A stretch of DNA of 62,690 nt, counting the filler, from Nitrospinae bacterium RIFCSPLOWO2_12_FULL_45_22 (GTDB lineage Bacteria; 2-12-FULL-45-22), in NCBI GenBank assembly GCA_001803565.1. It is 5 parts of 5 records of this genome, joined end to end, with 100 filler letters (N's around TTAATTAATTAA, not from the genome) between each part and the next. Parts side by side here need not be neighbours in the genome. Positions count along the whole stretch, not along the records: positions 1 to 12,506 come from MHDQ01000005.1; positions 12,607 to 31,564 come from MHDQ01000006.1; positions 31,665 to 44,137 come from MHDQ01000007.1; positions 44,238 to 57,328 come from MHDQ01000008.1; positions 57,429 to 62,690 come from MHDQ01000033.1. One strand, given 5' to 3'. The notes under the pieces were generated by a model. It was not told the DNA's origin. It searched no databases and was given only the letters and a program-made list of their open reading frames with translations. This document shows positions 7,591 through 61,680 of this stretch, in pieces (within the stretch, counting starts at the first letter, position 1; the number at the start of each line of letters is the position of its first letter). The position numbers and the translations under genes are program-made.

Positions 7591-7676
7591 TAAGCACTCA
7601 GCTATCAGCATTCAGCTTTTAGTTAAAAAGTGCTAATGTCTTGCTGACCGCTGATAGCTGACGGCTGAACACTTAC
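7591..7676. repeat. Intergenic palindromic element (heptamer CAGCTAT/GCTGATA family)
   Basis: TAAGCACTCAGCTATCAGC...GCTGATAGCTGACGGCTGAACACTTA inverted arms; same family at 17249 and 42761. Confidence 0.8.
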
Positions 7677-7679
7677 AGT

Positions 7680-9110
7680 TTATTTATAGCCGTAGTTTTT
7701 CCAGTTATTCAATACTTTTTCCTGGATTTCTTTAGGATAGATTTCTTTGAAAGAGGCCTTCCTGGGTATAGCAATCTCTTTAGGCCAGTCTAAAGGCCAG
7801 GTACAATCCAGCAGCACTGCGGCCCCTTTTCCCCACATCCTCTCTTCCAGGCTCAAGAATGGTAGCAGAGGATGGCCCACAGCAAATTCTTGTGCCCGGA
7901 TTCCTCTGACCGGGTGGCATTTGGTCACAATAGCATGTAATACCTCGGTAATATTATATGGGTCTACATCGGAATCTACTACTACTATGTAGGGATAAGG
8001 GAGTTTAGTGCCCCAGATGGCATTAGCTATATGGGAGGCAATATTGGTATATTTGGCTTGTACTGCCACCACAATCATATGACCAGAGCATTCGGGTGGT
8101 AGATGGATACCGGTAATAGGGAACCCATAATTATCTAAGATGGTCTTAATATCTGTCCGACCACAAACCGATAGGCAGATATCTGCATCATCCAGTGGTA
8201 CTCCCATATTGGCTACAGTAAGGATAGGGTCGTTCCTGAAGGTTATGGCCTTGACCCGATACACTGGCCGGGGCATCCGAGGGGAAGAGCGATAGCCGGT
8301 ATATTCTCCAAAAGGACCTTCATCTACCCGCTTATAAGGTAAGACTTCGCCTTCAATAATTATCTCCGCATGGGCCGGGACCAGGATATCGCTGGTTTCA
8401 CACTTGATCAATTCTACTGGAGCCCGTCTTATGCCACCAGCCAGGTCCGCCTCATTTCTGCCTACCCCATAAGAGGCGCAACTAGCCAGGGCCGAGATAG
8501 GGTCTGGCCCAATAGCCGTAGCAAAGGGCATAGGTATATTGTTGGCTTCATATTTGCGATAATACATAACGCCAATGTCCTGGGTAGGCAAAAATAATCC
8601 GCCCATATCCCGGCTGTTATGGATCATCTGGCGGTACATCCCCCAATTTACCCAGTCACTATCCATATCCTTGGTGAGAACGAAATGCCAGGTACTTATA
8701 TAGCGGCCACCATCACCATCATGCACCATGGGGGCGGGCAGCTCATAAAGGTCTACCTGATCCCCTATCCGGACATTCTCTTTACAAGGGCCATCTTTGA
8801 CTATTACCGGTTTTATGGGGTGCTGGGCCCGCTTGTGGTATTCATCCAGGATCGCGCCCGGATGGGAATCCGCCGGCATATCCATAGCAATAGCTAAGCG
8901 GCGAAAGTTAGCCAGCGGGCCACCAAACATCCGGAACCCCTTGGGATAGCCCTTGATCTTCTGGAAGAAAGGGGCTGGGAGCTTTAGTTCGTAAGACCGC
9001 CTGATTATTGCCCCGGCCTCTAAATCCCAATCCACTTCCTGCGCTACTCGTACCACTTCGCCGGCTTTTTCTAGTGCCTCTATATATTCCCGATTATCTC
9101 TAAATGGCAT
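7680..9110 (-). CDS. UbiD-family prFMN (de)carboxylase, phenylphosphate carboxylase alpha / AbcA-like
   Basis: EVDWDLEAGAI, VHDGDGGRY, NWGMYRQM, DEGPFGEYTGYRSSPR, NMGVPLDD and C-terminal SFKEIYPKEIQEKVLNNW resemble PpcA. Confidence 0.9.
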   Translation of the reverse strand: MPFRDNREYIEALEKAGEVVRVAQEVDWDLEAGAIIRRSYELKLPAPFFQKIKGYPKGFRMFGGPLANFRRLAIAMDMPADSHPGAILDEYHKRAQHPIKPVIVKDGPCKENVRIGDQVDLYELPAPMVHDGDGGRYISTWHFVLTKDMDSDWVNWGMYRQMIHNSRDMGGLFLPTQDIGVMYYRKYEANNIPMPFATAIGPDPISALASCASYGVGRNEADLAGGIRRAPVELIKCETSDILVPAHAEIIIEGEVLPYKRVDEGPFGEYTGYRSSPRMPRPVYRVKAITFRNDPILTVANMGVPLDDADICLSVCGRTDIKTILDNYGFPITGIHLPPECSGHMIVVAVQAKYTNIASHIANAIWGTKLPYPYIVVVDSDVDPYNITEVLHAIVTKCHPVRGIRAQEFAVGHPLLPFLSLEERMWGKGAAVLLDCTWPLDWPKEIAIPRKASFKEIYPKEIQEKVLNNWKNYGYK

Positions 9111-9134
9111 CTTACATCCCTCCTCTCTTTAGGG

Positions 9135-9428
9135 TTACCTGATCATCTCTTCCCGGGTAGGAGCTTTCTTAGGATGGAAGGCATCATCGGGAAGTTCTTC
9201 CAAGACCTGGATTCCCCAATACTGATCGGTGATATCATCTTTCAGGTTTCGAATCCAGAGTTTTGCTGCGCCCGGTAAGGCATTAAAATCCTCTTTGACC
9301 TTAGCCTTTACTACCTTTCTGGCCAAATCTGATAAGTCTCTTACCTCCAGTAATATATCTTTATCCTGTCTTATCTCTTCCAAAAGGTCTTCTAGATATA
9401 ACCAGTACACTTCATAACCCTCTCTCAT
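9135..9428 (-). CDS. Second gamma-subunit-like small protein
   Basis: LEVRDL...KVVKAKV...LP...LWIR...W.IQVLEE aligns by eye with the 7295-7570 protein; follows a UbiD gene. Confidence 0.65.
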   Translation of the reverse strand: MREGYEVYWLYLEDLLEEIRQDKDILLEVRDLSDLARKVVKAKVKEDFNALPGAAKLWIRNLKDDITDQYWGIQVLEELPDDAFHPKKAPTREEMIR

Positions 9429-9444
9429 CTTTTGACCCCTTATT

Positions 9445-9513
9445 CGTTAGGCGTTAGGCGTTAGGTGTAAGTGGTAAGGCTAACCCCTAACGACTCACCA
9501 CTTACGCCTAATG
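9445..9513. repeat. Intergenic palindromic element (GTTAGGC heptamer family)
   Basis: CGTTAGG x3, then TGTAAGTGGT...ACCACTTACGCCTAA inverted arm. Confidence 0.75.
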
Positions 9514-9533
9514 AGCTATCAGCTTCTGCTCTC

Positions 9534-11030
9534 TTAATCAACCATGGACTTGAACACGGGCCTCATGACATATTCTCCCCTCTTTTCCTGGGTTATAGAA
9601 ACCGGTTTTTCAAATCCAAGCCCCTGCCAGTTCCGCTCTACCCAGTCTTGTACCTCCCTGGGGAATGCCCGCTCAAAGTCTACCCTCTTATTCGGGAGCT
9701 TGCTGGTACAATCGAAATAGACGGTCTTCTTGAGAGCCTCTTTCTTTTCTGCAATACTCAAAAAAGGCTCGTACTTAATGGCATGGGCAGCGGGAGCATT
9801 TATCTTCCTGATATCTCTACCAGGATGAACGTTTAATGAGAATTCCTCCATACCATCTTCGGTATTAGAAGGATTAACCGTGGCATCAACAATAAATGAC
9901 CTGAACAAGCCAGGTATGGAACCCTGAAAAGCCAGGGCTGCCCTACCTACCACATCAGGGCTATTTTTTAGGATAGATATCCAGAGATTAGCCCAGGTAG
10001 AAGACCCAAGGGGGCTTCCCCAGGCCGTTACTACGGGCAGATCATGATAAACTCTGAGTCGTCTCCACATCTCTACCCCGAAGGCAAAACCTAATGCCTT
10101 GCTGGAATTGGCAAACATACCCTCGACACAGAAGGGTATGATAGGGTCTTTCCGGTGGGTAATGGCTGTTACACGAACCACAGGTCGGGGCATCCGGGGT
10201 CCCTGGATAAAACCTGGATACTCACCAAAAGGCCCCTCATCCCAAAGCTCACCGGGACGTATAACACCCTCAATCACTATATCGGCATCGGCCGGTACAT
10301 ATAGATTATTGGTCTCACACTTAACCAATTCCAGGGGCTCCTGCCGCAGTCCACCGATCAACTCTGCCTCCCAAATACCCCACGGGGCCCGAAATGCCGC
10401 ACCTACAAAGGTCAATACATCGGCCCCTACATAATAGGCTACCGGCATCGGCTCGCCCCGGGCATGCCATTTCTTCATAATAATATCCCCTTGCTGGCCA
10501 TAGGTAGGGTCATAACCGATGCCATTACGGGTATGGATCATACCGCGGTAGTTGGCCCAGTTATTCCAGCGCTCCTCTGGGTCCTCCATGCACCAGCAGC
10601 CGGTGGTAGTATACCGACCCCCATCGCCATGATGCAGATAAGGCCAGGGAAACTTCAGGAGATTCGCCTCCTTACCCATCTGGATATGTTCTTTGCAGAG
10701 ACCGTTAGAGACTATGGTAGGAGGAATACCGGTATATAGTCGCCTCAAGAGTTCTGCCCCCAGGTCAAAAGGGTTGGCCTCAGGTGGTGCGCCAGCGGCT
10801 ATCGCCAGCCGGCGCCATATCTGATGCACAGGCCCAGCCCAGGGCTCTCCTAATAAGGTGTAACCTTCTGGATAACCCTTTATCTTCTTGAACCAGAGGA
10901 TCGGACCGCCTACCCGGCAAGACATGGTAGAGAAGGCCGCTGCCTCCAGATTCCAATCCACCTCCTCTTCTATCTCTACCAACTCACCCATTTCTCTCAG
11001 ACGCTTTATAAATTCTCTTACTGATGGCAT
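9534..11030 (-). CDS. Divergent UbiD-family prFMN (de)carboxylase
   Basis: EEVDWNLE, HHGDGGRY, NWANYRGM, DEGPFGEYPGF; catalytic R/E/E retained. Confidence 0.9.
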   Translation of the reverse strand: MPSVREFIKRLREMGELVEIEEEVDWNLEAAAFSTMSCRVGGPILWFKKIKGYPEGYTLLGEPWAGPVHQIWRRLAIAAGAPPEANPFDLGAELLRRLYTGIPPTIVSNGLCKEHIQMGKEANLLKFPWPYLHHGDGGRYTTTGCWCMEDPEERWNNWANYRGMIHTRNGIGYDPTYGQQGDIIMKKWHARGEPMPVAYYVGADVLTFVGAAFRAPWGIWEAELIGGLRQEPLELVKCETNNLYVPADADIVIEGVIRPGELWDEGPFGEYPGFIQGPRMPRPVVRVTAITHRKDPIIPFCVEGMFANSSKALGFAFGVEMWRRLRVYHDLPVVTAWGSPLGSSTWANLWISILKNSPDVVGRAALAFQGSIPGLFRSFIVDATVNPSNTEDGMEEFSLNVHPGRDIRKINAPAAHAIKYEPFLSIAEKKEALKKTVYFDCTSKLPNKRVDFERAFPREVQDWVERNWQGLGFEKPVSITQEKRGEYVMRPVFKSMVD

Positions 11031-11050
11031 TCTCGCCTCCTTCCCCTTAT

Positions 11051-11287
11051 TTAGGTAAGTTCTTCTATGGCTATAACCTTAACATAAACCTCCCCGGCTT
11101 CAAGACCAAAGCGGCCAAAGACCTTCAGCTTCTCTGCCTCGGGAAACTCCTTGCGGCAGATAAGGGTATTGGCATAGAGCCAGGTCTTATCCGTATCGTC
11201 TAATAGCTTAACCCTCATTTCTCTGGGCGATGCTTCCAAAGCACCCCAGGTCTCTTCTAGTGATCTATAATCCACTTGATAAGCCAT
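11051..11287 (-). CDS. Small protein, possible third highly diverged gamma-like subunit
   Basis: 78 aa with GGAGG RBS, between two UbiD genes; FP...KLKV.GR.G.....YVKVIAIEE loosely echoes the gamma C-terminal half. Confidence 0.5.
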   Translation of the reverse strand: MAYQVDYRSLEETWGALEASPREMRVKLLDDTDKTWLYANTLICRKEFPEAEKLKVFGRFGLEAGEVYVKVIAIEELT

Positions 11288-11334
11288 AATTCTTTCCTCC
11301 CCCTATAATTAATACCATAGGAATTTCCCCTTCA

Positions 11335-11510
11335 GACACGGATGAAGACACAAAATCCTAAATCCTAATATCTAAATCCTAAAACAAATTCAAAATTAAA
11401 ATGACCTAATTTCAAAATAGTTTTGAGCATTTGGGCTTTGGATTTTGATATTGTTTAGAATTTAGGATTTCAAATTTAGAGTCTGTCTTAATTACTATCT
11501 GTGTGTATTT
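11335..11510. repeat. Nested intergenic palindrome (AAATCCT heptamer hairpin inside ACACGGATG/ATCTGTGT arms)
   Basis: AAATCCTAAATCCTAATATCTAAATCCTAAAAC...GTTTAGAATTTAGGATTT inner arms at about 11352-11480. Confidence 0.75.
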
Positions 11511-11533
11511 CGAAAATCTATATCCTAACTAAT

Positions 11534-12506
11534 TTAATCTACCATAGATTTAAACATTGGCCTCATAATATATTCTCCCCTCTTCCCTTTAAAAATAGAG
11601 GCCGGTTTTTCAAACCCCAACCTTTGCCAGTTCTGTGCTACCCAATCCTGTAACTCTCGGGGAAAGGCCCGCTCGAAGTCCACCCATTCATTATCCTGCT
11701 TAGCCGTACAATCGAAATAGACCCCTTTCTTAAGCCCCTCTTTTTTCTCTTCAATGCTCAAAAATGGCTCATACTTTATTCCAGTACATGCCGGGGCATT
11801 CACCTTCCTTATGTCCTTACTGGGATGGACATTTAGTGCGAAGGCTTCCATAGCGTCTTCGTTATTAGAGGGGTCTACTGAGGCATCTATAATGAAAGAT
11901 TTAGTGGTTATTGGTAGAAATCCATGCTGTCCAAGGGCAGCCCTATTGACAACATCGGGGCTGGTCTTTTCTAGCGCTATCCAGAAGCTGGCATACCCAG
12001 AGGGCATAGGGGCGGGCCAGACGCCTATTACAGGTAAATCATAATATACCCTGAGACGACGCCATACTTCGGCTGCAAAGCCAATTCCCAATGCCTTACT
12101 GGATGTAGCATACATACCTTCTACACAATAAGGTATAATCGGGTCTTTTCTGTGAGTGATGGCTGTTACGCGAACCACAGGCCGGGGCATCCTGGGCCCC
12201 TGGATAAAACCCGGGTATTCACCAAAGGGCCCCTCATCCCAAAGCTCACCAGGTCGAATGACACCCTCAATCACAATATCGGCATCGGCCGGTACATAGA
12301 GATGATTGGTCTCACACTTGACCAGCTCCAGGGGCTCCTGCCGCAGTCCACCGATCAACTCCGCCTCCCAAATACCCCACGGGGCACGAAACGCCGCACC
12401 TACAAAGGTCAAAACATCTGAGCCTACATAATAGGCCACCGGCATCGGCTCACCCCGGGCATGCCACTTCTTCATAATAAGATCCCCTTGCTGGCCATAG
12501 GTAGGG
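11534..12506 (-). CDS. UbiD-family paralog of 9534-11030 (5' part lost at contig end)
   Basis: Frame stays open to the spacer; only 2 substitutions in the 115 aa MKKW...DPIIP shared with the 498-aa paralog. Confidence 0.9.
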
Positions 12507-12606
12507 NNNNNNNNNNNNNNNNNNNNNNNNNNNNNNNNNNNNNNNNNNNNTTAATTAATTAANNNNNNNNNNNNNNNNNNNNNNNNNNNNNNNNNNNNNN
12601 NNNNNN
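12507..12606. other. Artificial contig-joining spacer
   Basis: N44-TTAATTAATTAA-N44 (stops in all frames). Confidence 0.97.
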
Positions 12607-12724
12607 CTTTGAGTTGGCTAAAAAAATCTATCCCTTCTCTCTCCATATGTCGGGCTATCCTATAAGCCTCCAGGGTATTAAAGTCATAAATCTTGATCTC
12701 ATCATCTTTAATCTCAAATTTCAT
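12607..12724 (-). CDS. Ferritin/rubrerythrin-like protein (N-terminal fragment)
   Basis: Read manually: MKFEIKDDEIKIYDFNTLEAYRIARHMEREGIDFFSQLK, a typical first helix (A..ME.EG..F); cut by contig end. Confidence 0.6.
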
Positions 12725-12751
12725 AGCCTTTCATTACTTCCTTACTATTTT

Positions 12752-13597
12752 TTATGGGATCTTGTCTACATCTTTGAAAATCCCCAAGGGATATTCCTCT
12801 AGCATATGGCTCATGATCCACTTAATTGACTCTAACGGTGTCTTTTTGAAGGTGGGGGGACAGGCAGATAATATTTCTACAAAGCTATAGCCTACACCAT
12901 CTATCTGTTTCTGGAAGGCCGTTTTTACTGTTTTTAGGGCCTGATTGAATTGGGCTGGGCTAGTCAGGGCACAGCGGGCGGAAAAGGCCATACCTGTCAT
13001 AGTGGCCAGCAGCTCTGCTACATGGATGGGATACCCAAATCCCTGAGGTTGTCTACCTTCCGGGGTAGTAGTAGTGACCTGGTCTAAAAGGGTAGTGGGG
13101 GCCATCTGGCCACCAGTAGTGCCATAGCCAGCATTATTACAAAAGATAGTAGTGAGTTTCTCTCCCCGGTTAACCGCATTTATCATATCACCCATGCCGA
13201 TAGCTGCCAGGTCCCCATCGCCCTGGACAGTAAAAACAATGGGTTTGCCGTGGAGGGATCGTTTTATACCGGTGGCTACCTCAGGGGCCCGGCCGTGCAG
13301 GGCCATAATAGCATCTATCTTTAGCATACCCATCCCCATAGCATGGCAGCCTACACCACCTACACCAATACAATGTCCCCGGATCTTTAACTCATCAATG
13401 GCTTCACCAATAAGGCGATAGATCAGGCCATGCTGGCAGCCAGGACACAGAATAGTGGGGAGGTCATGCATACATTCTGGCCGGGAATAGACTATCTCTC
13501 GCTCTACTTTTTCATCTATATTTTCTTTAATTGTTGAACTTATAATTCTGCCAGAAAAGGGCTCTCGCTTAACATTTTCGTCTACCTTTCTTTTCAT
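12752..13597 (-). CDS. 2-oxoacid:ferredoxin oxidoreductase beta subunit (TPP-binding, VOR-like)
   Basis: CPGCQHG, VGC, HGRA, QGDGDLAAIG...NNAGYGTTGGQMAPTT, LSACP. Confidence 0.92.
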   Translation of the reverse strand: MKRKVDENVKREPFSGRIISSTIKENIDEKVEREIVYSRPECMHDLPTILCPGCQHGLIYRLIGEAIDELKIRGHCIGVGGVGCHAMGMGMLKIDAIMALHGRAPEVATGIKRSLHGKPIVFTVQGDGDLAAIGMGDMINAVNRGEKLTTIFCNNAGYGTTGGQMAPTTLLDQVTTTTPEGRQPQGFGYPIHVAELLATMTGMAFSARCALTSPAQFNQALKTVKTAFQKQIDGVGYSFVEILSACPPTFKKTPLESIKWIMSHMLEEYPLGIFKDVDKIP

Positions 13598-13640
13598 GGT
13601 AATTCCTTTCCTTCTTGCATAACAGCAGTATCTGCGGCTA

Positions 13641-13664
13641 GGCAGGGTAAGACCCTGCAGCTAC
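13641..13664 (-). repeat. GTAG-type REP
   Basis: Minus strand GTAGCT-GCAGGGT-CTT-ACCCTGC-C hairpin. Confidence 0.6.
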
Positions 13665-13666
13665 TG

Positions 13667-14770
13667 TTAGATTAATCTCTTTACCTCTTGCAAAACGGTC
13701 TTAGGGAAGATCATACCGCTGGACGTAACCAGGTGGCGATGGGCAATGCCAACCAGGTGTACTTCTGCCTTATCTTGCACTGCGGCTTGCACATCCCGCA
13801 GCATCTGTCCCAGGTTGTCTTCTACTACCACGAATTTTTTGGTATGCTGGGCCGCAGCCCTTATTATCTGGGTGGGGAAAGGCCAGAGGGTGATAGGTCT
13901 AATAAAGCCAACTCTTAACCCTTCTTTCCGGGCCTGGTGATAAGCCCATAAAGAACTACGGGCACTGGAGCCAAAGGATACCACTATTAGGTCTGCATCT
14001 TCGGTATGGCCGGCCTGATAGCGGACCTCTTTTTCGGTCATCTCCTGGTATTTTTTGGTTATACGTATCATATAATCTCTGTAACTACCAAGGATTCCTG
14101 GGGCATTCTGGATAAACCTACCTGGATCATCATGATCACCAACAGTAGTTAGAGCCCAACTCTTTTTATCGGGGAGCGGCCCAAAGTCTAATCTGTGCAA
14201 CTCTAAGCCTTCCTGCATCTGCCCAATGATAGCATCAGTCAGGATAATGACCGGATGGCGGTACTTATCTGCCAGACAAAAGGCTAATTGGACCAGCTCA
14301 AAGGTCTCTTGCACTGAAGCGGGGGATAAGACAATGTTGTGATAGCCGCCATTGCCTCCACCCCGGGTAACCTGCATATAGTCCATCTGAGAAGTCTGGG
14401 TATTGCCACCACCAGGGCCACCACGCTGGACATCTGCGATGACACAGGGGAGTTCTGATGCTGCAAGGGTAGAGATCCCTTCCTGCATGAGACTAAAACC
14501 GGTACTGGAAGAAGAGGTCATGGCCCTTACACCGGTAGCGGCCGCACCATAGAGCATATTTATAGAAGATACCTCACTCTCGGTCTGGACAAATACTCCA
14601 CCCACCTTGGGTAGTTCGCGGGCAAAGAATTCTACTACCTCATTCTGCGGGGTTATAGGATAACCGAAATAACAGCGACAATCGGCATATAGGGCACCAT
14701 AACCCAGGGCTTCATTACCATTAATCAACCTTTTCTCTAGCATAATAGCTCCATTCTTCTCTTGCGTCAT
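13667..14770 (-). CDS. 2-oxoacid:ferredoxin oxidoreductase alpha subunit (VorB-like)
   Basis: GNEA, YFGYPITPQ, QTESEV, TSSSSTGFSLMQE, QRGGPG, RPITLWPFP. Confidence 0.92.
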   Translation of the reverse strand: MTQEKNGAIMLEKRLINGNEALGYGALYADCRCYFGYPITPQNEVVEFFARELPKVGGVFVQTESEVSSINMLYGAAATGVRAMTSSSSTGFSLMQEGISTLAASELPCVIADVQRGGPGGGNTQTSQMDYMQVTRGGGNGGYHNIVLSPASVQETFELVQLAFCLADKYRHPVIILTDAIIGQMQEGLELHRLDFGPLPDKKSWALTTVGDHDDPGRFIQNAPGILGSYRDYMIRITKKYQEMTEKEVRYQAGHTEDADLIVVSFGSSARSSLWAYHQARKEGLRVGFIRPITLWPFPTQIIRAAAQHTKKFVVVEDNLGQMLRDVQAAVQDKAEVHLVGIAHRHLVTSSGMIFPKTVLQEVKRLI

Positions 14771-14843
14771 TAGGTTAGTGCGGCATTGTGTTATCAGGTC
14801 ATTGGGCGATAGCGTTAATGGGTTATTAGGTCACCTAATGACC
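14766..14843. repeat. Intergenic palindromic element (ATTAGGTC family)
   Basis: GTCATTAGGT...ACCTAATGAC arms with internal 8-nt periodic units; same family at ~39281 and 61601. Confidence 0.65.
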
Positions 14844-15617
14844 TCATAAAATCTCTTTTACGTTTTTAAACTCTCCTAAAGGATACTCGGCTATCATATA
14901 TTCTTCTACCCACTTCAGGGCCTTATTGGGCGGCATATGAAGGGTAGAAGGGCAGGCAGATAGTATCTCTACAAACCCATAGCCTATACCATCCATCTGT
15001 TTCTGGAAGGCCAGGTTAAGGAATTTTTTGGTCTGATTATAATTTTTGCGAGACGTTAACGCACCCCGGGCAGAATAGGCTGTCCCTCGCAGCATAGCCA
15101 GCATCTCTGCTACATGGATAGGATAGCCTGCTACCTGGGGGTCTCGTCCAGTAGGGGTAGTAGTGGTGACTTGCTCTAATAAGGTAGTGGGGGCCATCTG
15201 GCCACCAGTGGTGCCATAGCCAGCGTTGTTGCAAAAGATAGTAGTCAATTTTTCCCCCCGGCCTATGGCATTAATGATATCGCCCATGCCAATAGCCGCC
15301 AGGTCACCATCGCCCTGGATAGTAAATACAATGGGTTTGCCACCCTGGGAGCGCTTTATCCCGGTAGCGACGCCCGGACCCCGGCCATGCAAGGCAAAGA
15401 CAAAGTCGGTAGCAATGGTCCCTATCATAAACCCATGACAGCCCACACCGGCTACACCAATAGCCTGTTTCTTGATGCCCAGTTCATCTATGGCCTCACA
15501 GATAACCCGGGCCACGGTGCCATAATGACAGCCCGGGCAATACATAGTTGGCAATCCGGTATAGGATTCCGGGCCCCCACAGAGCAATTCTCTTTCAGGA
15601 TGATCTATTTGTGGCAT
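14844..15617 (-). CDS. 2-oxoacid:ferredoxin oxidoreductase beta subunit (second copy)
   Basis: CPGCHYG, GDGDLAAIG, GGQMAPTT. Confidence 0.92.
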   Translation of the reverse strand: MPQIDHPERELLCGGPESYTGLPTMYCPGCHYGTVARVICEAIDELGIKKQAIGVAGVGCHGFMIGTIATDFVFALHGRGPGVATGIKRSQGGKPIVFTIQGDGDLAAIGMGDIINAIGRGEKLTTIFCNNAGYGTTGGQMAPTTLLEQVTTTTPTGRDPQVAGYPIHVAEMLAMLRGTAYSARGALTSRKNYNQTKKFLNLAFQKQMDGIGYGFVEILSACPSTLHMPPNKALKWVEEYMIAEYPLGEFKNVKEIL

Positions 15618-16684: not shown

Positions 16685-16708
16685 CTCCTCTTCCTTCCTT
16701 CACTTTCT

Positions 16709-16787
16709 TGCAAAACAAGCTTTGCCACTACATATTCCTGTAACAACGCTGGTTTCATGAGGTATGCAGTGATCGAGCTTGCTTGAC
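16709..16787. repeat. Divergent pair of GTAG-type REPs
   Basis: Minus-strand GTAGTGGCAAAGCTTGTTTTGCA plus degenerate plus-strand GCAGTGATCGAGCTTGCTTGAC; the same pair recurs at 61562-61680. Confidence 0.65.
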
Positions 16788-16797
16788 AACACATTTT

Positions 16798-17235: not shown

Positions 17236-17248
17236 TTCTCCTTAGTAC

Positions 17249-17378
17249 GTAAGCGTTCAGCCGTCAGCTATCAGCAAGACTTAGCGTAAGGCGTTAGGGG
17301 TAAGGCGTGAGGAGAAATTTTTCTTACCCCTAACGATTGTTTTTAACTGAAAACTGACTGCTGATAGCTGAAGGCTTA
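17249..17378. repeat. Nested palindromic element (GTAAGCGTTCAGC family enclosing GTTAGGG family)
   Basis: Outer GTAAGCGTTCAGCCGTCAGCTATCAGC...GCTGATAGCTGAAGGCTTA; inner CGTTAGGGGTAAG...CTTACCCCTAACG. Confidence 0.8.
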
Positions 17379-17379
17379 T

Positions 17380-17943
17380 CTAAGAATTGCCCCAACGGTG
17401 ATAGAGATTATGCTCAATATTAAAAAGGTCCAGGACTTTCCCTACCGTCTGATCAACTATATCGGTTATGGTCTTAGGGCCATTATAAAACGCCGGTGTC
17501 GGCGGCAAGATTATAGCCCCCATCTCCGTTGCCCGCTCTAGATTCCGGATATGACCGAGGTGCAGAGGTGTTTCCCGGAAGAGGAGGACTAATCTTCTCC
17601 TCTCCTTAAGCACCACATCGCAAGCCCTTACCAATAAATTATCATTATAGGAATGGGCGATAGCCGATAAGGTTTTTGCACTACAAGGGGCCACTATCAT
17701 CCCATCGGTACGGAAAGAGCCACTGGAAATCGGCGCTGCAATATCGTCAACCGCATGGCAATAATTGGCCAATTTTTCTATTCTTGCTATTTCTTTATAG
17801 GCTGTTTCCAGGGCTATAGTCTTTTTACCGGGGTCGGTGATTACCAGGTGGGTTTCTATCTCGGGGTGAGTATTCAATACTTCTAACAGCCTTATGCCGT
17901 AGATAGCGCCACTAGCGCCAGATATGCCAATGATCAGCTTCAA
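17380..17943 (-). CDS. ubiX: Flavin prenyltransferase UbiX
   Basis: GISGASGAIYG, APISSGS, APCS.KTL, LKERRRLVL..RETP, PAFY. Confidence 0.95.
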   Translation of the reverse strand: MKLIIGISGASGAIYGIRLLEVLNTHPEIETHLVITDPGKKTIALETAYKEIARIEKLANYCHAVDDIAAPISSGSFRTDGMIVAPCSAKTLSAIAHSYNDNLLVRACDVVLKERRRLVLLFRETPLHLGHIRNLERATEMGAIILPPTPAFYNGPKTITDIVDQTVGKVLDLFNIEHNLYHRWGNS

Positions 17944-17956
17944 GGTTCTCTCTCTC

Positions 17957-19180: not shown

Positions 19181-19210
19181 CCTTCATCCCCCCTCTTTTG
19201 GGTCATTGAA

Positions 19211-19815: not shown

Positions 19816-19946
19816 AACGCAGAGACCGCAGAGAACACAAAGATACGTACATCGTAAGGAGTGAGAAGTGAGGTGTAAGGGGGTGAGGAGTTATCGCTTT
19901 ACGCCTTACTACTAATGCCTTACGGCTTTTTGCGTACTCTGCGGTT
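19816..19946. repeat. Nested palindromic element (ACCGCAGAG 9-mer arms enclosing CGTAAGG heptamer hairpin)
   Basis: Outer ACCGCAGAG...CTCTGCGGT; inner CGTAAGG...CCTTACG (19853-19924). Confidence 0.75.
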
Positions 19947-37325: not shown

Positions 37326-37551
37326 GTAACCCTTCACCCCTCTAATCTTTATCCGCCACAAAGACACAAGGGCGCCAAGGAAACGTAAAACGCAAAGCTA
37401 AAAGTGCAAAGCTGGCGAAAAGAATACGGGATACAGGATACCAGGAAGAGAGAGTAACTCCAACCCCGGTATTCTAAATTCTGTATCCTTGATTTTAGAC
37501 TTTGCCTTTTAAGCTTTGAGCTTCTTAGCGCCTTGGTGGCTGAACGGTTAC
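37326..37551. mobile_element. MITE-like nested palindromic element with 7-bp target duplication
   Basis: Ends GTAACCCTTCA / TGAACGGTTAC, flanked by AAAACTT on both sides; three inner hairpin layers. Confidence 0.75.
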
Positions 37552-39249: not shown

Positions 39250-39422
39250 CTGAATTATACACCGCAAAAACGCAAAGAGGATAATGGGTTATTGGGTCAT
39301 TAGGTGACTCTGTTATTGCGCCATTATTTAATAACCTAATAACCTATTGAGGTTCTTTGCGTCCTTTGTGTTTCTGCAGTTATGAATAACGATTGACAAA
39401 ACTTAAGCCGGCATAATTCGGT
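39250..39422. repeat. Three-layer nested palindrome between the dehydratase genes
   Basis: GAATTAT/ATAATTC outer, ACGCAAAGA/TCTTTGCGT middle, ATGGGTTATTGGGTCATTA/TAATAACCTAATAACCTAT inner. Confidence 0.7.
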
Positions 39423-42760: not shown

Positions 42761-42906
42761 GTAAGCGTTCAGCTACCAGCCGTCAGCTTTCAGTAAAAAC
42801 AAGGAGATACTAAAACCAGCCTTCCGCTCCTAAGACCGGGACTTGTTCATAACCCGTTGCTTTGTTTGTTTTGCTGACCACTGATAGCTGACGGCTGAAC
42901 GCTTAC
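42761..42906. mobile_element. MITE-like element with 13-bp terminal inverted repeats and 8-bp target duplication
   Basis: GTAAGCGTTCAGC...GCTGAACGCTTAC flanked by AAAAATAC (42753-42760 and 42907-42914). Confidence 0.85.
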
Positions 42907-51071: not shown

Positions 51072-51213
51072 CTCTCTCCCCTCCCTATAAAAATATTATC
51101 GGCCCTAGCTTCCCGCTAAATTTCCCACATCCTTCATTTCGCACAAAAAGTAGCTACCACTTTTACTCAATAAGATTAGTTCACTAATTCACCGAAGAGC
51201 ACGCAGAAATTCT

Positions 51214-51352
51214 GGACGCAGATGAACGCAGATTATGCTATTTCGGGAATACAGAAGTCAGCATGGAAGGAACGATCGAGTTCTATTCTGAATTCTGACT
51301 ACTGACTCCTGTATTCTAAGTTATCCGCGTGAATCTGGGGAAATCTGCGTCC
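51214..51352. repeat. Nested palindrome (GGACGCAGAT arms enclosing GAATACAG/CTGTATTC hairpin)
   Basis: GGACGCAGAT...ATCTGCGTCC outer; inner arms at about 51248-51316. Confidence 0.75.
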
Positions 51353-53916: not shown

Positions 53917-54169
53917 GTCATTGGTCACTAGTGTAACGTTACATTAAAATGTTTCCAATGCGTAACCAAGTCTTTGCCACGAAGTCACAAAGACACAAAA
54001 TTTCTAATTCATTGTTTTTAAAGGAAAAAATAACTCTTTGTGCCTTAGTGCCTTTGTGGCTAATACAAGTTTTTAATGTATATATTTTAATGAAACGTTC
54101 TACTAGTCATTGGTCAATAGCAAATGCAGAGCAACAAGGATTTAACCTAATGACTAATGACCAGTGACT
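53917..54169. mobile_element. Triple-nested element: heptamer hairpin, CTAG-bounded MITE, inner hairpin
   Basis: GTCATTGGTCA arm interrupted at CTAG by CTAGTGTAACGTTACATTAAAAT...ATTTTAATGAAACGTTCTACTAG (53928-54106), which contains GCCACGAAG...CTTTGTGGC (53976-54060). Confidence 0.75.
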
Positions 54170-55157
54170 AATAACGGCCACTATAAGTTTCTAAGCCTAA
54201 ATCTTTTATCATCTGCAAATCTTCGGCTGCATCCCTCCCGGGTGTAGTAAGATACCCACCGATAATTAAGCCATTGGCACCAGCTAAAATACCCAGGGAT
54301 TGCAAATCCCGCAGATTTCTCTCCCTTCCACCAGCCAGCTTAATAATGCTATTTGGTAAAATCAGGCGAAAGATAGCAATAGTCTTTATTATCTCCCAGG
54401 GTGGTAGGGGGGGGGTATGCTCAAGGGGTGTGCCGGGTCTAGGGTTAAGGATATTAATAGTAGCACAATCTACTTCCAGCTCCTTCAAGGCAAAGGCTAG
54501 TTCCAGCCGCTGTTCCCATGTTTCACCCAGGCCTATTATCCCCCCACAGCAAGCCTCTAAGCCCGCTTCCTGTACCGACCTTATTGTGTCCCAGCGTTCC
54601 TGATAAGTATGGGTAGAGCAAATATTAGGAAAGAAGCTTTCTGCGGTCTCCAGGTTGTGGTTATAGCGGCTAATCCCTACCCGGTGCAGCTCTATCATAT
54701 ATTCCCTGGGGAGGTGTCCTAAAGAGCAGTCCAGCCTTAGCCCGGTAGTTCTCTTTAACTCTTCCAGGGTCTCTAATATCATCCCAAATTCTGTCTTGCT
54801 TACCCTTTTGCCACTGGTGACGAGGCAGAAATGGTCTGCCCCGCGCTGCTCCGCTTCCCTGGCTGCCTGTATTATTATCGAAGGGTCTAATAGAGGATAG
54901 GAAGGAGCCGAGGAATTATAGTGGATAGACTGGGCACAAAAGGCACAGTCTTCCTGACATTGCCCTGACCTGGCATTGATCAAAGAACAAAAATCCACCT
55001 TATCGCCTCTTTGCCTCTCCCGCACTTCACAAGCCACAGCCACCAAAGCCAGGATATCATTCTTTCGGTTTAGGTCGGTTAAAACTCGGACCTCAGACAG
55101 GCTTATACCCTTACCTTCCAGAACCTTCTCTCCCAATGTCTTAATCGCAGCTAGCAT
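54168..55157 (-). CDS. bioB: Biotin synthase
   Basis: CQEDCAFCAQS radical SAM motif, YNHNLET, CCGGIIGLGE, AGGRE, GGYLTT. Confidence 0.97.
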   Translation of the reverse strand: MLAAIKTLGEKVLEGKGISLSEVRVLTDLNRKNDILALVAVACEVRERQRGDKVDFCSLINARSGQCQEDCAFCAQSIHYNSSAPSYPLLDPSIIIQAAREAEQRGADHFCLVTSGKRVSKTEFGMILETLEELKRTTGLRLDCSLGHLPREYMIELHRVGISRYNHNLETAESFFPNICSTHTYQERWDTIRSVQEAGLEACCGGIIGLGETWEQRLELAFALKELEVDCATINILNPRPGTPLEHTPPLPPWEIIKTIAIFRLILPNSIIKLAGGRERNLRDLQSLGILAGANGLIIGGYLTTPGRDAAEDLQMIKDLGLETYSGRY

Positions 55158-55189: not shown

Positions 55190-55822
55190 TGTAAAGCTTA
55201 AAACGAAAAGCGCAAAACTAAGGATAAATTACCTTAATACTCTAATTCATAAGTTCGGTGACGTATTTAAAAACTATTTACTTGTGTAAAAAGAGGAGAT
55301 TTTGAGATTATGGAGATGTGGAGATAATCCATCTATTCAGCCTCAATCCTTCGGAAGTCTGCCATCTCTTTTGCAAAATTGACAAGGATGGCCAATTTAA
55401 GTCCGGTGGCTTTCAGGTAGGAACGAACCTGAGCATAATGTGCTTTGCTCAATTCTTCCACGGTTTTCAGCTCTACGATTACCCTATCTTCCACCACAAG
55501 ATCAAGTCTGTGCCGACCTACTTCCTCATCTCTGTAATAAATGATTACTTCCTTCTCCGTCTCCACTCTTAGAGACTGACTTCTTAATTCGATTAGTAAC
55601 GTTTTGCGGTAAATGCTTTCTAAAAAGCCTGGACCAAGAGTTTGGTGAACTTTGATGATCGCTTGTATTATTGTCTCGGTAAGCTTATCTTGTTGATATT
55701 CCATAACTTTATCTCCAGCATCTCCTTATCGCCTTATTTTACACCCGCTGCGAGATTTAGCTGGGAGGTTTATAATATGTCAGCGTATTTGTGAATTCGT
55801 GTACTTAGTTTTAAGCTTTACA
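55190..55822. mobile_element. Long nested inverted-repeat element carrying the GxxExxY gene
   Basis: Perfect 15-bp outer arms TGTAAAGCTTAAAAC (55190) / GTTTTAAGCTTTACA (55808), plus inner arms 55284-55327 / 55709-55744. Confidence 0.7.
55333..55704 (-). CDS. GxxExxY family protein (PD-(D/E)XK nuclease fold)
   Basis: LGPGFLESIY; RLDLVVEDRVIVELK; QVRSYLK. Confidence 0.92.
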   Translation of the reverse strand: MEYQQDKLTETIIQAIIKVHQTLGPGFLESIYRKTLLIELRSQSLRVETEKEVIIYYRDEEVGRHRLDLVVEDRVIVELKTVEELSKAHYAQVRSYLKATGLKLAILVNFAKEMADFRRIEAE

Positions 55823-55831
55823 CTCTACGCT

Positions 55832-56815
55832 TTACGCTTTGTTCATCTGCAGAGAGACATCCCCAGTATAGATTTTTATCTGTTGGCCGGAGGCTAACCG
55901 AAGGATCAGAGCCCCATGCTCATCTACATCTTCAGCCATGCCTTCTAAGGTTCCCTGTTCAGAGACGACTCGTACCTCTTTATTCAGGGTCATCAATGAA
56001 TTACGCCACTCTTTTACGATAAGAAGCCCCTTACCCGCTTGTAGCTCCTTATACTCCTTCTCCATCTCTTGTAGGAGACCCACCAGGAATTTTAGCCGGG
56101 AGATTTCCTGCCCTAGCTCTAAATAAATACTGGTGGCACTATAGGCAATTTCAGGATATATAGTAGGATCGAAATTCATATTAACCCCTATACCTACGAC
56201 TACATAGACCACCTGATCTTGCTCGGCCGAAAATTCTGTAAGTATACCACCAACCTTATTCCCGCGGATCATTATGTCATTAGGCCATTTTATTGAAGAT
56301 TCCAACGGGGTTAGGGCCTCGATGGTTTTCACTACAGATAGAGAGGCTATCATAGTAATATAGGACACCTGGATAGGCGAGAGATGGGGGCGGAGGATAA
56401 GGGATATCAATATGTTCTTATTGGCAGGCGAGAGCCACTCCCGGCCCATCCTACCCCGGCCCTGGGTCTGCTCTTCTGCAATGACCAACGTACCTTCTCT
56501 GGCCCCTTGACTGGCCAACTCCTTGGCCAGCACATTAGTGGAAGTAGTAACCGGATAATAATAGACCTCCTGGCCAATGAAATCTGTCTTTAATTCCCTC
56601 TTGATAAAGACGGGGAGTAATTTATCCGGGCAACTGATCAGGCAATAACCCAGGTTGGGCTGCGACTCTATATGAAAACCCTGCCCCCGTAATGTCTTTA
56701 TCTTCTTCCAGACGGCTGTGCGGGAAACTTTTAACCTCTCGGCTATAGCCTCTCCTGAGATAAACCCTTTTTCTCTGATAAGCATATCTAACAAAACCAT
56801 ATCATCCCCCACCAT
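55832..56815 (-). CDS. birA: Bifunctional biotin ligase/repressor
   Basis: N-terminal HTH (SGE.IA..L.VSRTAVWK), QTQGRGRMGR, KWPND, KVGGIL. Confidence 0.96.
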   Translation of the reverse strand: MVGDDMVLLDMLIREKGFISGEAIAERLKVSRTAVWKKIKTLRGQGFHIESQPNLGYCLISCPDKLLPVFIKRELKTDFIGQEVYYYPVTTSTNVLAKELASQGAREGTLVIAEEQTQGRGRMGREWLSPANKNILISLILRPHLSPIQVSYITMIASLSVVKTIEALTPLESSIKWPNDIMIRGNKVGGILTEFSAEQDQVVYVVVGIGVNMNFDPTIYPEIAYSATSIYLELGQEISRLKFLVGLLQEMEKEYKELQAGKGLLIVKEWRNSLMTLNKEVRVVSEQGTLEGMAEDVDEHGALILRLASGQQIKIYTGDVSLQMNKA

Positions 56816-57328: not shown

Positions 57329-57428
57329 NNNNNNNNNNNNNNNNNNNNNNNNNNNNNNNNNNNNNNNNNNNNTTAATTAATTAANNNNNNNNNNNNNNNN
57401 NNNNNNNNNNNNNNNNNNNNNNNNNNNN
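57329..57428. other. Artificial contig-joining spacer
   Basis: N44-TTAATTAATTAA-N44. Confidence 0.97.
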
Positions 57429-58408: not shown

Positions 58409-58414
58409 CCTGAG

Positions 58415-59816: not shown

Positions 59817-59818
59817 TT

Positions 59819-60414: not shown

Positions 60415-60448
60415 GTTATAAGAATGGAGTCAGTCTCGATTAATGAAG

Positions 60449-60582
60449 GTCTAACAACCAGATGGACGTGAACGAGTGCCACAGGACGCTTTTGGGGCTG
60501 AGCAGCGACTTAAGATTTGCAAATCGTCTTTTTGCTTTTTAACATCTTACAGTGGCACTCGTCAGTCATCAGGGCGTTAGGC
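60449..60582 (+). mobile_element. attC site (long)
   Basis: GTCTAAC...GATGGAC..ACGAGTGCCAC...GTGGCACTCGT..GTCATC...GTTAGGC. Confidence 0.88.
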
Positions 60583-60629
60583 AGGAGTAGCCAGCCTCGT
60601 GTACACTGAGAACGGAGAGGAGGGAAACG

Positions 60630-60851
60630 ATGATCCGAACGGTCGAAGCTGTAATTGATGAGTACGGTAATGTACGACTGCTAGAATCCGTCCATCTTCC
60701 TGCAGCCCGCCGAGCACTGGTCATGATTTTGGAGGAACGTCCAGTGGCCGGGGCACCCGAAAGTGCCCTGCTCAGTGAACCAGCACTTGCCGAAGACTGG
60801 AACCGGGCGGAGGAGGACGAAGCATGGTCGCACCTACAGCAGGTTCGGTAG
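60630..60851 (+). CDS. Antitoxin-like protein (cassette 5)
   Basis: Ends LLSE.ALAEDW...EEDEAW.HL; overlaps the PemK/MazF toxin gene. Confidence 0.75.
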   Translation: MIRTVEAVIDEYGNVRLLESVHLPAARRALVMILEERPVAGAPESALLSEPALAEDWNRAEEDEAWSHLQQVR

Positions 60852-61153
60852 TCCTTGTTCGCTTTCCCTTTTCTGACTTGTCGCAAACAAAACTGCGACC
60901 GGCTGTGGTGCTTGCTGACGCTGGCCGGGGCGACTGGATTCTGTGCCAGGTGACAAGCAAGCCTTACGGCGACACCCGGGCAACCAAGCTGGAGGACACC
61001 GACTTTGCCACTGGGTCGCTGCAAGTCCTGAGCCATGCCCGTCCTGGCAAACTCTTTACCGCCAATCGAGACCTGATAGTGGCGCAGGTTGGTACGCTGA
61101 AGTCGGAAGCGTTAAGCGAGATCGTTGATAATGGAGGTATTACTTCGGAATAG
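60824..61153 (+). CDS. PemK/MazF-family toxin (C-terminus probably disrupted)
   Basis: GSVVLVRFPFSDLSQTKLRPAVVL...ILCQVTS; last codons run into ybeY. Confidence 0.85.
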   Translation: MVAPTAGSVVLVRFPFSDLSQTKLRPAVVLADAGRGDWILCQVTSKPYGDTRATKLEDTDFATGSLQVLSHARPGKLFTANRDLIVAQVGTLKSEALSEIVDNGGITSE

Positions 61154-61553
61154 GCAGCGTAAGATAAAGGCAGACCTGGCAGCAATAAGGCTAGTGGCTG
61201 AGAAGATACTGAAGGCCCTAAACCTCCCCCAGGCAGAACTAAGCATTACCCTGGTTAATGATAAGCAGATCAGGGCATTGAACCGCCAATATCGAAAGCT
61301 AGACCGGCCAACCGATGTGCTGGCTTTCTCTATGCGAGAAGGCAGCTTTAAAGAGCTGAATCCTTTTCTCCTGGGAGATGTAATTATTTCTTTAGAAACC
61401 GCATTAAGACAGGCCAATACGTTGAGCCATAGCTTCCAGCAAGAATTTAATCAGCTCCTGGTTCATGGCATGCTCCATTTGTTAGGTTATGATCATGGCC
61501 GGACCATGAGCGGTAAAGAGCAAGCCCTTTTAAGATTAATTAGTTGCCAATGA
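61131..61553 (+). CDS. ybeY: rRNA maturation endoribonuclease YbeY
   Basis: LNRQYR..DRPTDVLAF, LGDVII, HGMLHLLGYDH. Confidence 0.95.
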   Translation: MEVLLRNRQRKIKADLAAIRLVAEKILKALNLPQAELSITLVNDKQIRALNRQYRKLDRPTDVLAFSMREGSFKELNPFLLGDVIISLETALRQANTLSHSFQQEFNQLLVHGMLHLLGYDHGRTMSGKEQALLRLISCQ

Positions 61554-61561
61554 AAAATCCC

Positions 61562-61680
61562 TGCAAAGCAAGCTTTGCCACGACATTTTGTAGAAGACTC
61601 GTTATTAGGTCATTAAGTAATTAGGTTATTAATTACGCAATGACTTAATAACCTAATAACGAAATGGTGTAGTGGTCGAG
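61562..61680. repeat. Divergent GTAG-REP pair with inserted ATTAGGT palindrome
   Basis: TGCAAAGCAAGCTTTGCCACGAC ... GTTATTAGGTCATTAAGT/ACTTAATAACCTAATAAC (61601-61660) ... GTAGTGGTCGAG; followed by an N gap at 61681-61709. Confidence 0.7.

Follow-up and report, generated by a model that had tools for sequence, protein, structure and literature searches.

Palindromic hairpins at gene junctions of a Nitrospinae genome

The window analysed here is a 62,690-nt stretch of DNA from the metagenome-assembled genome (MAG) of Nitrospinae bacterium RIFCSPLOWO2_12_FULL_45_22 (G000; 321 contigs, 3.67 Mb, 45% G+C, 85% complete), and our subject is the set of palindromic hairpins that lie between its genes. 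The window is made up of five contigs (C5, C6, C7, C8 and C33) with N44-TTAATTAATTAA-N44 linkers between them, so that the label "genome-wide" given to these hairpins by an initial annotation refers, within the window, to five separate pieces. The linkers give rise to spurious perfect palindromes in repeat scans, and 4 inverted-repeat hits within them were dropped from the genome count. Genes present in the window include UbiD-family genes, ubiX, ribK, bioB, bioU and genes for 2-hydroxyacyl-CoA dehydratase-like subunits. The same organism was found in other samples at ≥99% identity; a contig of run X5 covers 14565-17754 without gaps, and contigs of run X2, from another sample, terminate at three of the hairpins.

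The initial annotation listed 14 intergenic hairpins and read them as miniature mobile elements. We ran RNAfold on all 14 places with 30 mononucleotide shuffles and on 10 of them with 200 dinucleotide shuffles. Twelve of the 14 fold far better than their mononucleotide shuffles (z -2.6 to -8.1), and the nine accepted places that were tested against dinucleotide shuffles gave z values of -2.68 to -6.60; at 9440-9520 (z -2.68), 3 of the 200 shuffles fold equally well. The place at 42637 was not borne out as a hairpin (z -0.5 against mononucleotide shuffles, paralogue depth 0), and it was rejected as an element, since 42620-42760 has a z of -0.41, 58 of 200 dinucleotide shuffles fold equally well and there is no paralogue in the genome. 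The place at 55190 also lacks a fold of its own (z -0.5), because its partner arms are about 600 nt away across a gene, but it stands as the left half of a 645-nt nested inverted repeat around a small nuclease gene. Paralogues in the genome were found for 11 of the 13 accepted places, in keeping with the claim of distinct recurring families, while 9445 is a near-singleton. The claim that elements lie inside apparent operons also holds: the named operon genes are there, and hairpins occupy the space just behind a stop codon and ahead of the next ribosome-binding site. Within the UbiD-family operon at 7295-12475, the hairpins at 11346, 9444 and 7591 each directly follow a UbiD-family gene and precede the ribosome-binding site of a small (78-97 aa) gene. 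The coordinates of all features are collected in Table 1.

Table 1. Hairpins, nested layers and associated features of the window (z, RNAfold folding relative to shuffles; depth, paralogue depth in the genome; TRF, Tandem Repeats Finder; MITE, miniature inverted-repeat transposable element)
Feature	Coordinates	Strand	Location and structure	Basis
Linkers, N44-TTAATTAATTAA-N44	12507-12606, 31565-31664, 44138-44237, 57329-57428		between contigs	
A-type hairpin, heptamer (TCAGCNN) arms, degenerate GTAA-type ends	7591..7674	.	between UbiD-family gene and next small gene; arms 7590-7616 / 7643-7669	arms 81% complementary; 10-39 paralogous arm matches; 7585-7680 z -4.42
B-type hairpin, wholly of GTTAGGC-like heptamers, near-singleton	9444..9514	.	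arms 9444-9478 / 9480-9514	arms 71% complementary; TRF period 7 x 3.0 copies; depth <=1
C-type hairpin, AAATCCT heptamer arms	11346..11484	.	within weaker CACGGATGAAGACAC outer layer	z -4.94; depth 10-39; TRF period 7 in both arms
D-type hairpin, ATTAGGTN octamer arms	14766..14849	.	between two 2-oxoacid:ferredoxin oxidoreductase genes	RNAfold; 14760-14850 z -3.77; depth 3-19; 0 gaps in independent run X5 contig
A-type element, GTAAGCGTTCAGCC end	17249..17380	.	between ubiX and ribK; outer shell of two-layer nest	17236-17385 z -6.60; outer-arm depth 20-39
Inner B-type heptamer hairpin (GTAAGGC/GTTAGGG units)	17276..17340	.	in loop of A-type element	13-bp perfect inner stem; separate depth block
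E-type octamer-armed outer hairpin (CGCAGAGA/CACAAAGA)	19816..19945	.	arms 19825-19865 / 19905-19945; B-type heptamer hairpin inside	z -4.00
IS66-type MITE, terminal repeats GTAACCCTTCA...TGAACGGTTAC	37326..37551	.	interior: E-type octamer layer, then further layer (AACGCAAAGCTAAAAGTGCAAAG)	z -5.3; depth 10-39 except core
Innermost F-type (GATACAG-type) hairpin	37416..37486	.	replaces usual composite loop	depth 1; other copy, of 28, on C182 only
E-type outer arms (CGCAAAGA)	39260..39375	.	between two dehydratase subunit genes; D-type octamer hairpin inside (39283-39350)	39255-39380 z -5.57; depth 1-6 outer arms, 10-39 inner hairpin
A-type IS66-type MITE, 146 nt	42761..42906	.	C7 11097-11242	z -6.26
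8-bp target-site duplication of 42761..42906, AAAAATAC	42753-42760 and 42907-42914			perfect 8/8
Outer arms of GACGCAGAT words	51199..51352	.	inner hairpin of CAGAAGT/GAATACAG heptamers	z -4.2; depth 10-19; TRF period 7 x 4.7 copies
Multi-layer nest	53917..54175	.	between bioU and bioB; outside in: D-type words, arms 53927-53957 / 54077-54107, E-type octamer arms (~53975-54000 / 54036-54062)	z -8.1; TRF period 8 in both E arms
Further D-type array of 53917..54175	54140-54175			
Nested inverted repeat enclosing a gene	55191..55835	.	between bioB and birA; outer arms 55191-55222 / 55804-55835; then 120-nt MITE-family ends; then GGAGAT-word arms 55284-55317 / 55711-55744	
GxxExxY / PD-(D/E)XK-fold small gene, 123 aa	55333..55704	-	core of the nest	TIGR04256 136.8 bits; PF13366 135.3 bits
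D-type octamer hairpin (ATTAGGTN)	61599..61662	.	arms 61599-61630 / 61631-61662	arms 84% complementary; depth 10-39; 61590-61680 z -5.02 (200 dinucleotide shuffles)

Hairpins of this kind are found throughout the genome, as had been claimed. A seed-and-extend scan gave 412 inverted repeats in 316 clusters (261 in crude intergenic DNA), against 3 clusters when the genome was shuffled in 100-nt blocks. Short-period arms are likewise common: 183 of the 344 hits with arms ≥20 nt are periodic at ≥60% identity, compared with 250 of 2991 random intergenic 25-mers, and the period is 7 in 80 of them, 8 in 79, 9 in 17, 10 in 6 and 6 in 1. TRF arrays of period 7 (453, of which 324 or 72% are intergenic) and period 8 (314; 218 intergenic, 69%) outnumber those of period 6 (97; 23 intergenic, 24%) and period 9 (265; 89 intergenic, 34%). 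Period-7 arrays have a median of 3.7 copies and a maximum of 17, and mostly form inverted pairs. The polarity of each family is fixed, since among the 122 clusters that could be classified (194 of the 316 were unclassified) 120 are canonical, 1 is opposite only and 1 is both.

Terminal repeats, empty sites and nesting

Among 11-mers, GTAACAGTTCA and GTAACCGTTCA are the commonest in the genome. The motif GTAA[CG]NGTTCA occurs 103 times forward and 97 times reverse, compared with 13 and 9 in a shuffle, and these ends pair at 60-250 nt in 43 cases and at 300-2000 nt never. In the window, they are found at 42761, at 37326 and, as a left end, at 17249. We compared the 8-nt flanks of 42 elements of 60-300 nt: they match at all 8 positions in 23, at 7 in 5 and at 6 in 4, while control flanks displaced by 10-30 nt gave no better than 5 of 8 in 126 comparisons. 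At 37326..37551 the 7 bases before the element are AAAACTT and the 7 after it AAACTTT, with AAACTT as the longest common stretch. When seven copies of the A-type MITE were aligned, about 40 nt at each end proved nearly invariant while the centre was unalignable, which is the pattern that selection by a transposase, and not selection on RNA structure, would be expected to leave.

Terminal repeats of the IS66 family of insertion sequences (IS) are described as starting with GTAAGCG and as flanked by 8-bp direct repeats (PMC11946415), and ISDge4, a member of the single-ORF (open reading frame) ISBst12 group, has the end GTAACTGCTCAGCA and an 8-bp repeat in the account given in PMC12898284. The elements described here share with the IS66 family and its MITE derivatives the GTAA(G/C) terminal inverted repeats and the 8-bp target-site duplication; they are short, protein-less and multi-copy, and an IS66-family transposase remnant adjoins the same end sequence. 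They differ in that the interior is a long periodic heptamer or octamer hairpin, often nested, and not a deleted transposase gene. This suggests that the outer shells at 37326 and 42761 are IS66-family MITEs with GTAA[C/G]NGTTCA ends and an 8-bp target duplication, that those at 7591 and 17249 are probably decayed MITEs of the same family, and that such elements would be moved in trans by a DDE transposase. The sole IS66-family transposase match in the assembly (PF03050, C275:12283-13971, equivalent to L017:1021-2709) starts 133 nt after a GTAACCGTTCACCC end. It belongs to an ORF of 562 aa with DUF6444, zf-IS66 and DDE_Tnp_IS66 (profile 5-165 of 284) followed by HD_5; this ORF could represent either the in-frame insertion of a truncated IS or a fusion that has been domesticated.

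Empty and filled sites were compared within the genome and with a relative. An all-against-all comparison of 2048 crude intergenic regions gave 161 insertion-like events, defined as 15-400 extra bases in one copy between two collinear matches to another. A scan of metagenome contigs with RibBA gave a best identity of 70% and no close relatives for orthologous gaps, and we therefore used G001, the only same-order relative compared (a 323-kb sample of an assembly that is 68% complete). Among 44 adjacent gene pairs conserved between the two genomes, a hairpin with a score of ≥14 is found in neither genome at 28, in G001 only at 9, in G000 only at 5 and in both at 2, and the two junctions filled in both carry different families. 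Fourteen of the 16 hairpin-bearing junctions are thus filled in one genome only, and their empty partners are often 1-12 nt long or consist of overlapping genes. The orthologous ubiX-ribK gap of G001 has no hairpin; no BioB orthologue was found in G001, which leaves the bioB-birA cassette site without a comparison. Orthologous gaps are not always filled, then, and together with the target duplications (23 of 42 elements) and the insertion-like events this supports the claim that the elements are mobile, to which one possible polymorphism, described below, may be added.

The MITE design, with GTAAC-GTTCA ends and CGCAAAG-type octamer arms, was found in 2 of 150 unrelated genomes (43 and 3 copies; the reversed-pattern control gave 0) and was not found in G001. 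The A-type MITE had no match in a plasmid collection, and a 22-mer from the composite MITE inner layer had 0 matches in a genome-contig collection. One of the unrelated genomes, G071 (L213, L216), has 43 MITEs with GTAAC-GTTCA ends around GACGCAAAG octamer arms, as well as GxxExxY genes.

Another kind of element is a mini-hairpin of 19-33 nt, CCTGTCTG-loop-CAGGCAGG, with 49 copies in the genome (for example C48:15483-15504), compared with none in a shuffle. Its stem retains a T.G mismatch that is strand-specific, and the two perfect-stem versions occur only 2 and 9 times. Copies are found inside repetitive extragenic palindromes (REPs), MITE loops, periodic arms and other copies of itself, and in our reading the mini-hairpin inserts, without target duplication, into any of the other kinds. 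Its commonest form, of 24 nt, is identical at 12 loci (L119-L130) of other MAGs with unrelated flanks, whose labels cover at least four further phyla: Zetaproteobacteria/Mariprofundaceae, Anaerolineae/Anaerolineales, Deltaproteobacteria, Nitrospirota and unclassified bacterium; this 24-mer was found in no viral contig and is absent from the window. A literature search with the mini-hairpin words returned unrelated primer sequences only. The small dispersed repeats (SDR) of Nostoc, as Elhai et al. reportedly described them in 2008, are elements of 21-27 nt found inserted in hairpins, in heptamer repeats and within one another. On this description they would resemble the mini-hairpin in size, insertion sites and lack of target duplication, but the mini-hairpin is identical across MAGs of several phyla and not confined to one clade. 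A passage of PMC3116915 cites Elhai et al. 2008 as work on very small mobile repeats.

In one contig of run X2 a mini-hairpin of 32 nt, missing from the window, is inserted at 14756, close to where the ORF at 13667-14770 has its 5' end. This single weak observation (depth 6.2 versus 14.4) is possibly a live insertion polymorphism.

The genome also contains true REPs with a GTAG tag, represented by three 14-mers with about 41, 35 and 28 copies genome-wide, and two genes for REP-associated tyrosine transposases (RAYT; C49:7463-7960 and C282:6122-6988; NF047646, 205.9 and 91.5 bits) flanked by GTAG-type palindromes. The hairpins listed by the initial annotation have no GTAG or CGTC tag. They resemble REPs, bacterial interspersed mosaic elements (BIMEs) and REP doublets forming hairpins (REPINs) in being short intergenic palindromes that form mosaics and in pairing a non-autonomous repeat with a single-copy gene as the presumed mover, and the GTAG-tagged REPs of G000 adjoin RAYT genes as in the REPIN-RAYT system. 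They differ in being longer, in having periodic arms and in being tied to PF05635, PF13366 and IS66 instead of RAYT; they are also present in G001, where a search of the 68%-complete assembly gave no Y1 transposase. The initial annotation had asked whether all the arms match described REP or MITE families. Part of the set does, being of the IS66 type with its known transposase family, and other repeats of the genome are GTAG REPs accompanied by RAYT genes. No such match holds for the heptamer and octamer hairpins or for the mini-hairpin. At 61665-61680 lies a REP-like element with a GTAG tag (TGTAGTGGTCGAG...), which runs into an N run at 61681-61709.

Nesting, as the initial annotation described it, is real at 17249, 19816, 37326, 39250, 51214, 53917 and 55191-55835. 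The four layers reported at 37326 are present as structure, but fewer than four separate insertions can be documented, because paralogues mostly carry the terminal repeats, the octamer layer and the layer within it as a single element of about 170 nt. The composite inner-layer motif has 28 copies in the genome, most within the same shell; 2 of them have the GATACAG hairpin in place of the loop, 4 have a mini-hairpin at one point of the loop, 2 have a 120-nt MITE, and others are found in quite different shells. A given inner layer occurs in more than one shell, and a given shell around more than one core; the outer shell of 53917..54175 recurs on C273 with a different inner layer. Contigs of three runs join the A-type arms at 17249 without the 17276..17340 insert (joints 17275->17340/17341). 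These joints were rejected as alleles and are probably paralogous copies, as each side spans no more than 27-28 nt and read depth accumulates at this point.

The initial annotation further proposed that the elements target each other's hairpins. Repeat DNA makes up 19.5% of crude intergenic DNA, and of 35 intergenic mini-hairpins 15 are bordered by it on both sides (binomial P 0.0013, about twofold), so nesting is modestly above chance, but insertions are not restricted to loops. With an excess this modest and with insertions outside loops, targeting is inseparable from survival in tolerant DNA, and selection alone could explain the twofold enrichment. We propose that insertions settle in the space from a stop codon to the following ribosome-binding site, or in older elements, as the places where an insertion survives in a compact genome, and that this gives the Russian-doll appearance.

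Cassettes with the same arms around small genes

The nested inverted repeat between bioB and birA encloses the gene at 55333-55704 in three nested pairs of arms, and similar arrangements recur in the genome. G000 has 12 GxxExxY matches (5 full-length and 7 C-terminal remnants) and 9 PF05635 genes. A flanking inverted-repeat score of ≥18 was found for 6 of the 8 testable PF05635 genes and a score of ≥15.5 for 3 of the 5 full GxxExxY genes, whereas for 131 control genes of similar size the median was 9 and the 90th percentile 11, and a single gene reached ≥20. The arms lie directly against the start and stop codons and are built of words that also make up the hairpins lacking a gene, namely ATTAGGT-type (D), AATTAGC-type, CACAAAGA-type (E) and GACGCAGAT. 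Arms of the GACGCAGATGAACGCAGAT kind, as at 51199..51352, also bracket a GxxExxY gene remnant on C219.

The association extends to other genomes. With one locus taken per genome, 16 of 29 GxxExxY loci have flanking repeats scoring ≥15, against 1 of 52 controls, with arm words CACAGAGA/CGCAAAGG/CGCAGATT, and 20 of 28 PF05635 loci have flanking arms, against 1 of 55 controls; 18 of the 22 periodic PF05635 arms have a period of 7. The same arms bracket PF05635 and GxxExxY/PF13366 genes here and in unrelated genomes, and the hairpins therefore look like gene-less derivatives of cassettes. By this reading, the hairpins with 7- or 8-nt periodic arms would be gene-less relatives of two widespread arm-gene-arm cassettes. 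In one, heptamer arms flank a gene of PF05635 ("23S rRNA intervening-sequence protein"); in the other, CACRRAGR-type octamer arms flank a GxxExxY gene (PF13366, PD-(D/E)XK fold), and the window has one complete cassette of this second kind at 55191-55835. The series from full gene through remnant to bare hairpin reads like a decay of autonomous into non-autonomous elements, and we infer that the gene-less hairpins derive from cassettes and are moved by the cassette proteins or by a host function.

A known arrangement of this form is the intervening sequence (IVS) of 23S rRNA in Coxiella and Leptospira, which also consists of arm, ORF and arm, the ORF being a PF05635 (S23p) gene in the loop that a long stem closes. 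According to PMC4990558, the terminal stem of ORF-bearing 23S rRNA IVS is cut by RNase III, the S23p protein is reported to be a homopentamer, and these IVS are regarded as selfish and horizontally transferred. IVS lie in helix 25 or 45 of 23S rRNA, while all copies examined here lie between protein-coding genes, and Rfam found no rRNA in the window. The present cassettes and their gene-less forms thus sit at operon junctions and not in rRNA helices; their arms are tandem 7- to 8-nt arrays, and there is a second type of cassette with a PD-(D/E)XK-fold gene. The long stems may form in operon mRNA and be cut by RNase III as in rRNA IVS, and such an effect of the stems on operon mRNA is plausible by analogy. 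A passage of PMC3424549 lists PF13366 as "unknown" with multiple transfers, and the portions consulted of the literature on GxxExxY, PF13366 and TIGR04256 describe no such cassettes.

The relative is likewise rich in heptamer hairpins, which belong to other families: the 323-kb sample of G001 has 52 clusters, and TRF gave 130 arrays of period 7 against 18 of period 6 in it. Some of these hairpins (for example L133:11120-11470 and L141:2100-2450) are capped at their outer ends by GC-rich mini-hairpins such as CTCGCTACGCGAG and CCCCCTACGGGGG, and their loops contain other repeats.

A more speculative step would be that the periodic arms are iteron-like sites bound by the PF05635 and GxxExxY proteins, which would mobilise both the cassettes and the commoner gene-less hairpins in parallel with REPIN/RAYT, with RNase III excision of the long stems keeping insertions at operon junctions, and within one another, near-silent. 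We hold this only tentatively and think it rather doubtful as a whole.

Mobile repeats weighed against local growth and host signals

Our preferred reading, to which we give a probability of about 0.78, is that the hairpins form a community of mobile elements that are small, non-coding and palindromic, differ in mechanism and are stacked within each other. It builds on what was observed here, namely element families, target duplications, empty sites among paralogues and orthologues, and the association of arms with genes. In these terms the initial annotation is partly supported, with mobility and nesting largely right and targeting unproven. One part of the community is of a known kind, the IS66-type MITEs, and the rest is akin to MITE- and REPIN-like repeats and to IVS-like cassettes, of which the literature searched gives fragmentary descriptions.

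Several results weigh against this reading. No intact IS66 transposase, and hence no intact partner for the MITEs, was found in the 85%-complete, 321-contig assembly. For the mini-hairpin, and for periodic hairpins without terminal repeats, we found neither a target duplication nor a target consensus. No strong flanking repeat is present at 8 of the 28 PF05635 and 13 of the 29 GxxExxY loci of other genomes. No PF05635, GxxExxY or Y1-transposase gene was found in the 68%-complete assembly of G001, which nevertheless has hairpins; cassette genes are therefore not required for hairpins to persist, and their spread may not require them either. The crude density of inverted repeats here (86 per Mb; 316 clusters in 3.67 Mb) is also not far above that of 80 unrelated metagenome loci (61 per Mb; 37 clusters in 0.607 Mb), and five of those loci have periodic-arm hairpins of like kind, so that this is a widespread phenomenon and not a lineage-specific one. 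A metagenome contig with 67% G+C has a 290-nt hairpin at L053:1458-1715 made almost wholly of CAACTCC / GGAGTTG heptamers, with a minimum free energy of -168 kcal/mol.

The remaining points of this sort concern slippage, and they would also be expected if each hairpin had grown in situ, by slippage of a 7- to 8-nt unit and palindromic duplication, and had never moved. The hairpin at 9445 has no paralogue in the genome. The arms are complementary at 0.857 in register (a value inflated by hit selection) and at 0.750 after a slip of one unit, which equals the identity of units within an arm (0.752), so local slippage clearly shapes the arms. Array length is variable, as noted above, and Rehm et al. 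(PMC4692102) state, in the text available, that such repeats vary in length among Xanthomonas species and cite the idea of polymerase slippage; that G001 has hairpins without candidate mobility genes found there would fit as well. Growth in place accounts poorly, however, for families that share specific orders of unit variants and a fixed polarity, for perfect target duplications, for whole elements inserted within other repeats or for identical arms around cassette genes in unrelated genomes. We consider it unlikely as the origin of the hairpins, and slippage is best seen as a second process that reshapes elements after insertion.

The position and stability of the stems could instead point to sites selected by the host, either for nucleoid or regulatory proteins or as mRNA stabilisers and processing sites for operons. 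Hairpins that stand right after stop codons and before the next ribosome-binding site, the very stable stems (-27 to -56 kcal/mol) and the RNase III gene present in G000 would all agree with this, and the paired opposite-strand sites of Geobacter metallireducens are read as IHF/HU sites in the part of PMC2700814 consulted. A conserved host signal would be expected at orthologous junctions, yet these are mostly empty in the other genome and carry different families where both are filled. There is also no orientation bias with respect to transcription, as the sense/antisense counts relative to co-directional flanking genes are 10/10, 9/12, 5/10 and 5/3, and Rfam has no matching family. The check by folding and covariation that the initial annotation called for gave folds at 12 of 14 places; in seven A-type copies compensatory change was seen in 1 of 36 predicted pairs (covariation term +1.37), a count that is uninformative on this point as the arms are near-invariant and the centre unalignable. 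Selection of these sites by the host seems to us quite improbable. That the hairpins are intrinsic terminators or attenuators, as stable stem-loops between genes might suggest, is hardly credible: the stems lack a T-run, no hairpin falls on any of the 15 terminator-like sites predicted for 7000-20500 (shuffles gave 12.9 +/- 3.8 sites, so there is no excess), and hairpins are no commoner in convergent gaps (18 of 202) than in co-directional ones (180 of 1159). With no coincident predicted site and no convergent-gap excess, the terminator reading was rejected. The orientation, Rfam, terminator and gap data fit elements selected at the DNA level.

Heptameric repeats reported elsewhere resemble the present hairpins in being intergenic tandem units of 7-9 nt, often in opposite-strand pairs and also found inside operons. 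In Geobacter metallireducens, units of 7-9 nt repeated 3-5 times in tandem form pairs on opposite strands, for instance between proB and proA (PMC2700814), convergent heptamer-repeat pairs were counted in Xanthomonas (70 and 75 cases) by authors who remark on the absence of detailed literature on heptameric repeats (PMC4692102), and TAACTGA direct repeats of Beggiatoaceae are read as translational signals (PMC4679880). In the passages at hand, these papers differ from our reading in treating the repeats as quadruplex-forming repeats, regulator sites or translational signals, and those passages contain no nesting, target duplications, empty and filled sites or link to cassette genes. The main texts of the literature searched held nothing that links such hairpins to cassette genes, IS66-type ends or nesting.

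Intergenic heptamer repeats of bacteria have been on record for decades, and neither an origin nor a function for them has gained acceptance. In this genome they stand beside their probable sources: it has MITEs with clean target duplications, full and truncated cassettes and bare hairpins, and such a mixture of elements helps to explain the puzzling 7- and 8-base repeats of many bacteria. A descriptive puzzle is in this way turned into testable claims on the pairing of proteins with arms, on the removal of stems by RNase III and on the spread of 20-30-nt hairpins across phyla. If iteron-like binding and mobilisation were true, the origin of heptamer repeats, reported since 1990 in cyanobacteria, Xanthomonas, Geobacter and uncultured phyla, would be explained. 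There are practical consequences as well, since the palindromes break short-read assemblies exactly at operon junctions and put spurious "regulatory" hairpins into annotations.

Elsewhere in the window, a 145-aa ORF at 19211-19648 matches PF21758 (115.7 bits), a bacterial proteasome-assembly-chaperone-like protein.

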